From: Trueperaceae bacterium
GTDB lineage: Bacteria; Deinococcota; Deinococci; Deinococcales; Trueperaceae
Direction: 5' to 3'
DNA length: 64,000 nt
NCBI GenBank assembly: GCA_965215565.1
Contig: CBDCDZ010000004.1
Span: forward strand, 4,096,001 to 4,160,000
In this document: positions 39,052 to 41,678 of the stretch, one piece after another
Numbering within the stretch: the first letter of the stretch is position 1
Layout: each line of letters starts with the position of its first letter
Notes under the pieces: generated by a model
What the model saw: only the letters and a program-made list of their open reading frames with translations
Told to the model about the DNA's origin: nothing
Database searches by the model: none
Program-made: the position numbers and the translations under genes

Positions 39052-39678
39052 ATGTCTGATGTGGTCGTCTACTTCGATTATCTCTGTCCCTTTGCTTGGC
39101 GCGGCGCGGAAGTCGCGCACGTCGTTGAGCGCGAACTCGGTCTCAGCTTCGAGTGGCGGCATTTTAGCCTCTATCAGAGCAACTACAGCAACGATCATGG
39201 TGGTGGCAACGGCTGGCAGCTTTGGAACGACCGCATCGAACCGGAGAGTGACAACGGCAGCAAAGGGCTACTCCCTTTTTTAGCGTCTTGTGCAGCGCGT
39301 CGGCAAGGCCCGGAGCTACATGCCCGCTTCCGCATGGCGCTGATGCGAGCGCGTTACCGTGAGCATAAACCTTATACGCTCACGACGCTTAAAGAGGTAG
39401 CTGGCGCGGTAGGATTACACGTTCCTAAGTTCGAAAGTGACCTCTCTGACCCGGAGTGCCGCACCACCTTAGCGCACGAACACCACCGTGCTGTGGCGCT
39501 AGATGTTTTCGGCACGCCGACTTTTTGTTTTCCGAACGGTCACACGTCGTATTTTCGCATCAACGCGCTACCTCGCAGTGACGAAGAGGCGGTTGACCTC
39601 TTTCAGAGTTACTGGCAGATGTTAGAACGCTATCCCTATTTAGAGACCATTAAGCGCCCGCGCGTCAAAGGGAATTAG
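39052..39678 (+). CDS. DsbA/FrnE-like thioredoxin-fold protein
   Basis: YFDYLCPFAW and VFGTPT motifs. Confidence 0.85.
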   Translation: MSDVVVYFDYLCPFAWRGAEVAHVVERELGLSFEWRHFSLYQSNYSNDHGGGNGWQLWNDRIEPESDNGSKGLLPFLASCAARRQGPELHARFRMALMRARYREHKPYTLTTLKEVAGAVGLHVPKFESDLSDPECRTTLAHEHHRAVALDVFGTPTFCFPNGHTSYFRINALPRSDEEAVDLFQSYWQMLERYPYLETIKRPRVKGN

Positions 39679-39788
39679 GCGCGCTTAAATTTTAGCTGCG
39701 CCGCTTCGAGGATTTGGAGCGGCGTTTTTCGGAGAGGCTCGAGCCCTCTAGTCCTGATTTTTGTAGCAGGTATCCGTATATTAAGAGA

Positions 39789-39920
39789 AGCGAGGTGATG
39801 CCCAGCAAGTATCAGCTTTAGGGCTAACAGATGAACTGCACACCTCGCTCACTAAGCTACACGGAGCTTGCCTGATACTAAGACGCTTAGTAGCCTCATA
39901 GACGGATAAGCAGCTACCGT
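39789..39920 (+). ncRNA. Predicted IS110 bridge RNA with target-binding and donor-binding loops
   Basis: Stem AGCGAGGTG/CACCTCGCT encloses AGCAAGTATC and CAGATGA (match the target); stem ACGGAGCT/AGCTACCGT encloses ATACTAAG and ATAGACGGA (match the donor junction). Confidence 0.8.
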
Positions 39921-39943
39921 GAGCAGCAACCTAAGGAGGTTGT

Positions 39944-40882
39944 ATGGTCATTATAGGGGTTGATCCACATCCGCAGAGCCATACCGCAGCAGCGTTAGAT
40001 AAACAGGGCAAGGTATTAGGTCACTGCACCGTTACGAATACGGCTGAGGGCTTGGCAACTTTGGAGCACTGGATAAAGCGCTATGACGTTCAGCGGTGCG
40101 CTATTGAAGGGGCGAATAACCCCTTTGCTCGGAGGTTGAGTCAAGCGTTGCTCGGGCAGGACCATAAGGTTGTGGACATTAGTCCGAGTCTGACGAGTCA
40201 GTACCGCAGCAAAAGAGGACGCAAGAAGAGTGATGAGGTAGACGCTGAAAACGTAGCTCGGGCTGCTTTGGCTAATCCTGAGCTGACTACGTTTGCACCT
40301 CGGCAAGCGGTTGAAGACCTCAAACATCTGACCCGCACCCGAGAAGCGCTAGCTAAACAGCTTACAGCGCACAAGCTGAGCTTAGCGAGCCTTGAGCTAG
40401 AGGTGGCTCGCCAAGCCGTCGAAGCCGTTATTGCAGTGCTTAAAGAACAACTCAAGACGCTCGAGCAGGCGATGAAAGCCCTCGTTGACGAACTGATGCC
40501 TGAACTCTTAGAGGTCTTTGGCGTCGGCGTCGTTCACGCCGCCACGCTACTTGCTGAAGCAGGTGACATCCGACGCTTTCGTTCACAACACGCCTTTGCC
40601 ATGTATTCAGGTTGTGCGCCTGTCGAGCGCTCTTCTGGTGGTCAGAAGAGAAGGCAACTCAACATCGGCGGCAACCGTCGGCTCAACCGCACCTTTCACA
40701 TGATTGCCCAAGTCAGACTGCGCCACAGCGAACCGACAAGAGCCTATCTCGACAAGAAACAGCAGCAAGGCAAGACCCGCCGGGCTGCTCTAAGAAGTCT
40801 CAAAACCTATCTCGCAAGAGAACTCTTTCGTTTCATGCTGCAAGTCACTCAGCAGCACCCACAGAGGTGGAAGGGGGCTTGA
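39944..40882 (+). CDS. IS110 family DEDD recombinase/transposase (312 aa)
   Basis: IIGVDPH, CAIEG and KSDEVDA (DEDD RuvC-like); C-terminal GCAPVERSSG and GGNRRLN; AAGGAGG RBS. Confidence 0.95.
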   Translation: MVIIGVDPHPQSHTAAALDKQGKVLGHCTVTNTAEGLATLEHWIKRYDVQRCAIEGANNPFARRLSQALLGQDHKVVDISPSLTSQYRSKRGRKKSDEVDAENVARAALANPELTTFAPRQAVEDLKHLTRTREALAKQLTAHKLSLASLELEVARQAVEAVIAVLKEQLKTLEQAMKALVDELMPELLEVFGVGVVHAATLLAEAGDIRRFRSQHAFAMYSGCAPVERSSGGQKRRQLNIGGNRRLNRTFHMIAQVRLRHSEPTRAYLDKKQQQGKTRRAALRSLKTYLARELFRFMLQVTQQHPQRWKGA

Positions 40883-41054
40883 CAACTCTATACTAAGTTC
40901 ATCTGGTTTGAGACACTCTCACTCTAAAAAGCAGCGTTTAGGACGCACATTGTGAGATGATACCTGCGGCGTTCTGTCTCAGTATATTTTGGAACTGCTA
41001 TTGAAATTGCGTAACGGGAGCCGTGTTCAACACATCCTCCTAATGAATCAACGG

Positions 41055-41083
41055 TTGACACCTTCTATACTGCTCGGTATACT
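41055..41083 (+). promoter_or_regulatory. Sigma70 promoter with overlapping palindromic operator
   Basis: TTGACA-N17-TATACT, 7 nt before GTG 41091; TATACTGCTCGGTATA at 41066-41081. Confidence 0.75.
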
Positions 41084-41090
41084 CGTTGGT

Positions 41091-41678
41091 GTGATAGAGA
41101 CACCGACTACCCTAGAGCCGCGCTCGCGCCTCTTGTGCTGCGCGCTTCACCTCTTCGCTGAGCACGGCTACGACGCAGTTGGGGTGCAGCGCGTGGTCGA
41201 AGCGGCGGGCGTGACGAAGCCGACGCTCTATCATCACTTCGGGAACAAGCTGGGGCTCTTGGAGGCTCTTCTACAAACTCACTTCGACCCCCTCAACGAG
41301 AGACTGCAACGCGCCGCCGCCTATCACCGCGATTTACCGCAAACGCTAGAACAGTTCAGCAGTACCTATATAACGCTGTCACTCAACGAGCCGGACTTCT
41401 CCAGACTGCGCCTCACCCTCTGGTTCGCCCCGCCGGGCAGCGAAGCGTTTCGCGCGGTTGCGCCCTGGTTAGAACGTCAGGAGAAACTCGTCGCTGAGCT
41501 TTTTGAGCAGGCATCGCAAGACCACGGCAACATGCGCTCTCGGCAGCTTACGCTGGCCTCGAGCTTCTTAGGTACGCTCAACACTTACGTTGGCTTATCG
41601 CTCAACGGATACTTGAATCTAAATGATGAGACCCGCCACCAGATGTTGCGTCAATATATGTACGGCATCTTCTCGTGA
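41091..41678 (+). CDS. TetR/AcrR family regulator
   Basis: FAEHGYDAVGVQRVVEAAGVTKPTLYHHF helix-turn-helix. Confidence 0.9.
   Translation: MIETPTTLEPRSRLLCCALHLFAEHGYDAVGVQRVVEAAGVTKPTLYHHFGNKLGLLEALLQTHFDPLNERLQRAAAYHRDLPQTLEQFSSTYITLSLNEPDFSRLRLTLWFAPPGSEAFRAVAPWLERQEKLVAELFEQASQDHGNMRSRQLTLASSFLGTLNTYVGLSLNGYLNLNDETRHQMLRQYMYGIFS

Follow-up and report, generated by a model that had tools for sequence, protein, structure and literature searches.

A TC-core IS110-group insertion sequence with a predicted two-loop bridge RNA and a displaced left donor guide

Does the non-coding left end of a small insertion sequence encode a bridge RNA whose guides read both the genomic target and the element's own junction and, if so, how closely does it follow IS621? 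The question is raised by positions 39789-39920 of the window, by which we mean the whole stretch of 64,000 nucleotides analysed here. A first-pass annotation had recognized in this region the target-loop/donor-loop logic of the IS621 RNA, and all the strings that it quoted are present where it placed them. All window features described below lie on the + strand.

Ends, core and target repeat

The element measures 1128 bp from core to core, and the genome carries seven full copies of it, six of them identical and the seventh different at a single base. The outer DNA differs from copy to copy, while all seven have TAGCAGGTA on the 5' side and ATCTGGTTTGAG on the 3' side, and TC represents the sole bases common to the left and right junctions. 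The left core (39773-39774) and the right core (40899-40900) thus frame an insertion that, in all seven copies, occupies one TC within a dispersed repeat of 111 bp. The 5' end of this repeat (39764-39772, with the left target, positions 1-7, at 39766-39772) precedes the element, and the remainder (40901-41000, with the right target, positions 10-14, at 40901-40905) follows it; the element itself begins with the right donor CGTAT (positions 10-14, 39775-39779) and closes with the left donor (positions -1 to 7, 40890-40898). An empty allele was found in the public run X1, where one contig passes from 39772 straight to 40899, without the 1126 nt in between, and two letters at the joint fit either side; the shorter side of this joint is 20 letters long, and X1 is possibly the same organism as the window. 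The depth of the empty-site contig is 25.2, versus 24 in the unique right flank. The TC core named in the first-pass annotation is therefore supported by the junction comparison, by the empty site and, as described below, by the ends of the homologues. The 14-mer of the empty site has 234 exact occurrences genome-wide, against 0.03 expected.

The non-coding left end is 169 nt long and the right end extends 16 nt past the stop codon; long terminal or subterminal inverted repeats are absent, with just ATAC/GTAT around the core. Membership of the IS1111 group, whose RNA is encoded in a long right end with subterminal inverted repeats of 7-17 bp, was considered and rejected, as here the RNA is in the left end and the right end is 16 nt. 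Judging from its copies and junctions, the element is a recently active IS110-group insertion sequence.

The target repeat starts with TAGCAG and ends with CTGCTA; among 231 of its 5' ends, a 3' end is found no more than 400 nt away in 141, and the length is exactly 111 bp in 57. With inverted termini, an inner inverted repeat, more than 230 copies and a second subfamily of about 50, this host repeat looks like a miniature inverted-repeat element.

The genome also contains several partial elements. One decayed copy with many small deletions and no left end lies between two identical partial repeats (G000:C4:3452624-3453349), and may reflect decay or an assembly error. Four left-junction remnants retain 8-28 nt of the left end (G000:C4:160178, 269799, 687472, 3341781); at least three of them continue into the body of the host repeat, and one is ascribed to an older version of the element because it keeps a T at the bulge position, as in relatives. 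These truncated remnants do not decide between cut-out and copy-out movement. A right junction at G000:C4:695978 (minus strand) retains just ATACTAAG-T-TC, the stretch that the left donor guide matches, joined to a repeat; it lies 8.5 kb from the 687472 remnant and in the opposite orientation, and the pair may be what an inversion involving one donor-like and one target site would leave behind, although a deletion fits too. A second member of the same clade (G000:C4:420850-422000, 56% identity) has an in-frame stop; it is bordered by TC junctions of its own, and its guides match the flank and the right end of this member itself.

A two-loop RNA and its covariation with the DNA

The left end of the element contains a target-binding loop (39789-39849; outer stem, bulged base at 39798, inner hairpin at 39815-39824) and a donor-binding loop (39856-39924; outer stem, bulged base at 39868, inner hairpin at 39885-39894). 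In the ensemble of the window RNA both outer stems have a pair probability above 0.999, and the fold of 39770-39960 (z = -3.1) is more stable than all of 200 shuffles, in agreement with the two stem-closed loops originally proposed; the donor stem placed at 39861-39868/39912-39920 does form, and extends further, to 39856-39924. The minimum-energy fold of the single sequence lacks the inner hairpins and the open guide loops, both of which are recovered in the consensus fold of 43 homologous RNAs; a consensus fold calculated without guidance returns the same helices as the guided alignment. Across these 43 RNAs (out of 49, five with long inserts and L017 being left out) 94.5% of the stem cells are paired, with changes on both sides in 19 of 23 pairs; none of 500 shuffles scored as high, and slid registers gave 28-50%. 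No Rfam match was found in 39400-41300 at E up to 1. A hairpin involving CTTAGTA (39886-39892), suggested earlier as an alternative partner of the left donor guide, was discarded as a conserved feature: it is perfect in just 2 of 48 RNAs (the window element and a 92% relative), with a pair probability of about 0.05.

Transcription of this RNA would depend on the element's being a circle. A -10-like box, TATATT (39777-39782), lies in the left end, and a -35 box, TTGACA (40879-40884), which overlaps the stop codon, is present in nearly all homologous right ends; the promoter is expected to be complete only in the circle, where the computed junction places the two boxes 18 nt apart, with a predicted start near 39789. 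The predicted RNA therefore begins with the target stem, some 155 nt before the ATG. A promoter scan of the linear locus gave no sites, and no joint of right end to left end was listed in four contig sets, a type of data that drops rare forms. Among the public runs, none of RNA was listed as containing the sequence, which speaks neither for nor against expression. The distance from the core to the left guide is 30 nt in the window element, 27-39 nt in 39 of the 44 homologous RNAs with a left junction, and 46-76 nt in the other five; with this distance and this start, the absence of room for a 5' accessory hairpin, noted in the first pass, is confirmed.

Within the target loop, the left guide measures 9 nt (39805-39813) rather than the ten bases 39804-39813 first assigned, the A at 39804 being part of the linker; it matches the used site at 8 of 9 positions. 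The right target guide (39828-39834) matches at 7 of 7. The left donor guide occupies a slot at 39875-39884, of which 39875-39882 corresponds to donor positions -1 to 6, while the last two bases mismatch positions 7-8, so that in the window element this guide does not reach the core. The right donor guide (39898-39906) had been located correctly and described as a contiguous match of 8 out of 9; we read it instead as AT (39898-39899), two looped-out bases and ACGGA (39902-39906), with all seven guide bases paired. A contiguous 9-nt guide was rejected, as the spacer between AT and the last five nucleotides varies from 2 to 77 nt among homologues (2-6 nt in 39 of 48 RNAs, longer in five, unparsed in four). 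The inserts in L041, L045, L067, L069 and L071 are 40-77 nt long and leave both parts of the guide intact.

The four guides listed in the first-pass annotation hold as matches, but the two handshake bases that follow each right guide had been missed. In IS621, each right guide is followed by two bases that pair, once the top strands have been exchanged, with positions 6-7 of the opposite substrate (PMC11208158). In the window element, AC (39835-39836) in the target loop would pair after exchange with T7 and G6 of the donor, and TA (39907-39908) in the donor loop with A7 and T6 of the target. There are thus no handshake pairs before exchange and four after (one and three, respectively, in IS621, according to PMC13626964), and this gain of pairs would favour insertion over excision.

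Every used site presents an A:C mismatch to the left target guide at position 4. The second repeat subfamily, of which there are 52 exact copies, matches the left guide at 9 of 9 positions and the right guide with one G:T pair. The 11 left junctions that the genome contains all belong to the first subfamily, the one mismatched to the left guide. The mismatch may reflect a left guide that fits both subfamilies. A true preference for repeat subfamily A was considered and dropped: all seven full copies are in it, yet with 234 versus 52 sites available this has a probability of about 0.25 by chance.

Since guides of 7-10 nt in an RNA that is itself predicted could also be chance matches or relics of duplication, with no guide RNA in use, we compared them with 20,000 versions of the left end shuffled by dinucleotides. 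The individual guides attained their matches in 346, 7, 139 and 111 of these, and no version attained all four. This control is rough, as the four queries were picked after the matches had been seen. A stronger one is provided by the homologues. A search of the phylum gave matches at E ≤ 1e-40 in 18 of 364 genomes, and an alignment query added 48 metagenome and 5 genome loci; a single-protein search of the genome contigs gave nothing, while the alignment query of the same contigs did match. There are more than 100 close protein relatives. Those with names include Trueperaceae (63-69% identity), Lentisphaerae (48%), an Acidobacteria bin (43%) and Deinococcus plasmids (48-49%). Because the closest of them are labelled Trueperaceae, the Deinococcota host suggested at first is likely; because Lentisphaerae and Acidobacteria bins are also among them, the clade is not confined to Deinococcota.

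The parsed set consisted of 84 rows, 83 loci (including repeats of the same element) and the window, and the bases of the core were counted with anchors that leave the core free. TC is found at the right end in all 67 rows with an anchor and at the left junction in 56 of 57, the exception being CC in L074. Seven loci (L006, L013, L014, L018, L021, L023, L072) were re-parsed with hand-set anchors, and 49 distinct RNAs were kept, among which L017 lacks a right donor guide; L034 has a truncated target loop, which was excluded. The left target guide matches the left flank (positions 1-7) in 167 of 217 comparisons over 31 distinct guides (permuted mean 80), the right target guide (positions 10-14) in 100 of 110 over 22 distinct guides (permuted 34), and the left donor guide (positions -1 to 6) in 156 of 160 over 20 (permuted 137); none of 20,000 permutations reaches any of these three values, although the counts are overstated because the homologues are related. 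Together with the compensatory changes in the stems, guides that change with unrelated flanks make it very hard to credit that the matches are accidental, and the alignment bears out the target-loop/donor-loop logic of the first-pass annotation. In two RNAs (L032, L035) the left target guide is displaced by 1 nt within the slot, with a U:G wobble at the core end. At the left junction of L007 the flank resembles a donor end and not the target specified by the guide, as an insertion directed by the donor loop alone (a half-match) would give. In L002, a relative of 92% identity from the same genus, the ORF is broken by other DNA just past the start codon, while the RNA is intact and has the same guides.

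Does the donor loop guide at all? Short RNAs comprising only the target loop dominate in ISEc21 and CazIS110-1 and can support movement there, according to the accessible accounts, and one might imagine that here too a short processed RNA of the seekRNA type does the guiding, the donor loop being structural or dispensable and the protein reading the ends. The donor is nearly invariant, so that much of its match could be due to shared ancestry, and because donor motifs served as parsing anchors only its variable positions count as independent evidence. These do covary with the donor loop: position 10 matches the right donor guide in 17 of 17 (C/C 7, T/T 10) and position 3 matches the left guide in 19 of 20, while position 7 matches in 4 of 20 and position 8 in 15 of 20. 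In addition, target position 7 is complementary to the first handshake base of the donor loop in 38 of the 41 RNAs compared. We therefore regard guidance by the target loop alone as improbable, and keep to a two-loop bridge RNA.

The handshake bases are informative also in other respects. For the first handshake base of the target loop, donor position 7 is a pairing partner in all 40 RNAs compared (A:T 25, T:A 13, G:C 2), and the loop's own target in just 2 of 42. On a tree of 45 proteins, a quick one with several long branches from which four short ORFs were left out, there are at least three separate compensatory changes for each first base. This pairing sets the register, and with it the TC core, without recourse to the comparison of junctions. 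A conserved second pair in the donor loop was rejected, being Watson-Crick in 8 of 41 only. An invariant G in the donor loop is another potential partner of that loop's first handshake base, a possibility that may restrict the base to C or U.

The recombinase and its relation to known systems

The ORF at 39944-40882 encodes an IS110 recombinase of 312 aa, as identified by Pfam (PF01548 and PF02371), by NCBIfam (NF033542, 171 bits versus a cut-off of 140), by alignment and by a predicted structure (mean pLDDT 90.6). The structures closest to the model are ISCro4 (Z 23.0) and IS621 (Z 22.6), with an rmsd of 4.3 over 291-292 residues and an identity of about 23-25% in the structural alignment; these results uphold the enzyme assignment of the first-pass annotation. 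D7, E55, D97, D100 and S231 align with the catalytic residues of IS621, the last three with D102, D105 and S241, and D7, E55 and D100 are invariant among 74 aligned relatives. The enzyme thus reads as an intact RuvC-like DEDD plus serine recombinase.

In IS621 relatives the second base of the core is T, 'almost invariant', and is read by the amide of G63 (PMC11208158). The loop behind the catalytic E55 is one residue longer than in IS621, and in 34 of the 37 tree rows with a correct anchor the fourth residue past the Glu is an Asn; this Asn is a candidate reader of the core. Loss of the equivalent of G63 as the cause of the TC core was rejected, since 12 of 45 tree rows read EGAGN, with the G kept. 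Upstream of the ORF, a predicted hairpin of 7 bp (39926-39943) covers the ribosome-binding site AGGAGG (39934-39939), and possibly exerts translational control. Similar hairpins occur in L003, L004, L034 and L035.

With IS621 and ISCro4/IS622 the element shares the two-domain enzyme and its fold and the left-end RNA, and a circle-junction promoter like theirs is predicted for it. For a comparison of the loops we used the IS621 sequence in Supplementary Table 1 of PMC11208160. In both elements a bulged base lies 7 nt before the left target guide, the left and right target guides are 9 and 7 nt long, the bulged base is 16 nt from the inner stem in both loops, the right donor guide consists of AT, a bulge and 5 nt, the handshake bases are non-cognate, the right donor is YGTAT, the left target is mismatched at position 4 and insertion is into a dispersed repeat. 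The differences concern the core, which is CT (or NT) in IS621-like elements and TC in the window element and its clade; the 5' hairpin, which in IS621 measures 33 nt, with 177 nt from start to ATG, and is missing here; and the left donor guide, which lies 2 nt further 3', covering -1 to 6 (and extending to 8 in 15 of the 20 pairs from homologues), so that it gains the AT at -1/0 and loses a 2-nt linker. A TC core, the lack of a 5' hairpin in most members and the displaced left donor guide characterize the clade as read from its alignments. By these features the element belongs to the IS110 group and would work in the manner of IS621, but it is not IS621-like in its core and in the register of its donor guide. 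The size of the enzyme and the missing hairpin, which the first-pass annotation had singled out, are not exceptional: enzymes of the IS621 branch have 315-330 aa, only slightly more than the 312 aa here, and a split IS622 RNA functions without its 5' stem loop.

Like ISPpu9 and ISPpu10 of Pseudomonas putida, the element is present in several copies within one family of extragenic repeats (REP in that organism), and a junction promoter, as in those elements, is predicted for it; the core of ISPpu10 is CT, while here it is TC and insertion is at the 5' end of a 111-bp repeat whose termini are inverted. The seekRNA elements CazIS110-1 and ISEc21 likewise have a left-end RNA with a target loop, in CazIS110-1 a two-loop RNA of about 170 nt; for them, processing to the target loop alone and top-strand transfer have been shown by experiment. 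TIGR-Tas has in common with it a Nop-like domain (Z 17.1 of the model to TasR) and box C/D-like motifs around the target-loop guides, which here consist of CCA before and UG after them. TIGR-Tas systems, however, have tandem dual-spacer arrays, in place of a single two-loop unit inside an insertion sequence, and the TIGR-Tas model NF052498 scores 42 bits, below its cut-off of 100. Identity with TIGR-Tas was rejected: there is no array, the unit is flanked by IS ends and the serine recombinase domain is intact.

Strand transfer, the displaced guide and what they imply

Comparison of copies, homologues and models establishes the ends, the TC core, the single target, the intact enzyme, the two-loop RNA, and guides and handshake bases that covary with the DNA. 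Taking these results together with what is reported for better-characterized relatives, we hold it very probable that this IS110-group insertion sequence is active and that its movement proceeds by bridge-RNA-guided recombination. By analogy with IS621, ISPpu10 and CazIS110-1, a circle would form and join TTGACA to TATATT with an 18-nt spacer; the junction promoter would fire near 39789, giving an RNA that starts with the target loop; dimers of the recombinase on the two loops would open target and donor; the top strands would be cut at the core and then swapped; and the handshake bases would pair with the non-cognate DNA after the swap, favouring insertion. Whether the circle arises by cut-out or copy-out is disputed in the family (accessible parts of 10.64898/2026.08.31.748434 and 10.1101/2025.10.25.684509).

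The displaced left donor guide may bear on this dispute. The guide base for donor position 1 stands 9 nt past the bulged base, instead of 7 nt as in the target loop and in both loops of IS621, and this offset is seen in all 20 distinct guide/donor pairs, although the distance from bulge to inner stem is 16 nt in all four loops. According to one explanation, the displaced guide puts the bottom strand of the donor out of register, so that only the top strand is transferred (copy-out, paste-in) and host replication or repair finishes the process. The parts that act on the top strand, right guides and handshake bases, stay in the IS621 register, and top-strand-only transfer has been reported for CazIS110-1 (10.1101/2025.10.25.684509), single-strand excision for IS621 (10.64898/2026.08.31.748434), in both cases as far as the available text goes. 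This tenet is challenged by the possibility that the 3-nt linker plus AT simply loops out, and by the 1-nt shifts of L032 and L035, because of which the register of the guides must be considered flexible and not strict; furthermore, as a top-strand bias is reported in elements without a known shift, the displacement is not needed as its cause. On balance we consider this explanation unlikely. Most likely the displacement only extends donor pairing over the AT at -1/0 and leaves the chemistry unchanged.

The mechanism as such has already been published, and what sets the element apart is the TC core and the displaced donor guide, which do not by themselves amount to a new mechanism. Bridge RNAs have been predicted in 85.7% of the IS110-group elements of ISfinder, and 32,190 bridge RNAs have been scored with 86 models (10.64898/2026.10.21.760802); the characterized recombinases IS621, ISCro4/IS622 and ISPpu10 have a CT-type core. 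A search of the accessible literature gave no account of a TC-core clade of bridge recombinases and no paper pairing IS110 with Truepera; preprint supplements (72 IS622 orthologues, 86 models) could already include elements with a TC core, and the clade may lie unremarked within the published prediction sets. In the available tables of PMC11208160, two proteins with the motifs of the clade appear in the tree table without an ISfinder name, and four junction motifs of the clade have 0 occurrences in the donor set, compared with 324 for an IS621 control.

Bridge recombinases are sought as programmable tools for genome writing. The recently active element, whose ends are defined, whose core is TC and whose predicted natural RNA is short, has more than 100 close protein relatives and is a ready candidate to widen the range of targetable sites and perhaps to act orthogonally. 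The natural inserts of up to 77 nt in the donor-loop bulge point to a possible site for RNA tags, and the displaced donor guide makes it possible to test cleanly how the cut depends on the register of the guide. It is conceivable, though unlikely, that this widespread branch of IS110, with its TC core and a donor register shifted by 2 nt, represents a natural top-strand-only (copy-and-paste) bridge recombinase. If this were true, it would be orthogonal to IS621 and ISCro4 and would open TC sites to bridge editing, and the branch would serve as a test of the dispute on one- versus two-strand exchange in the family.
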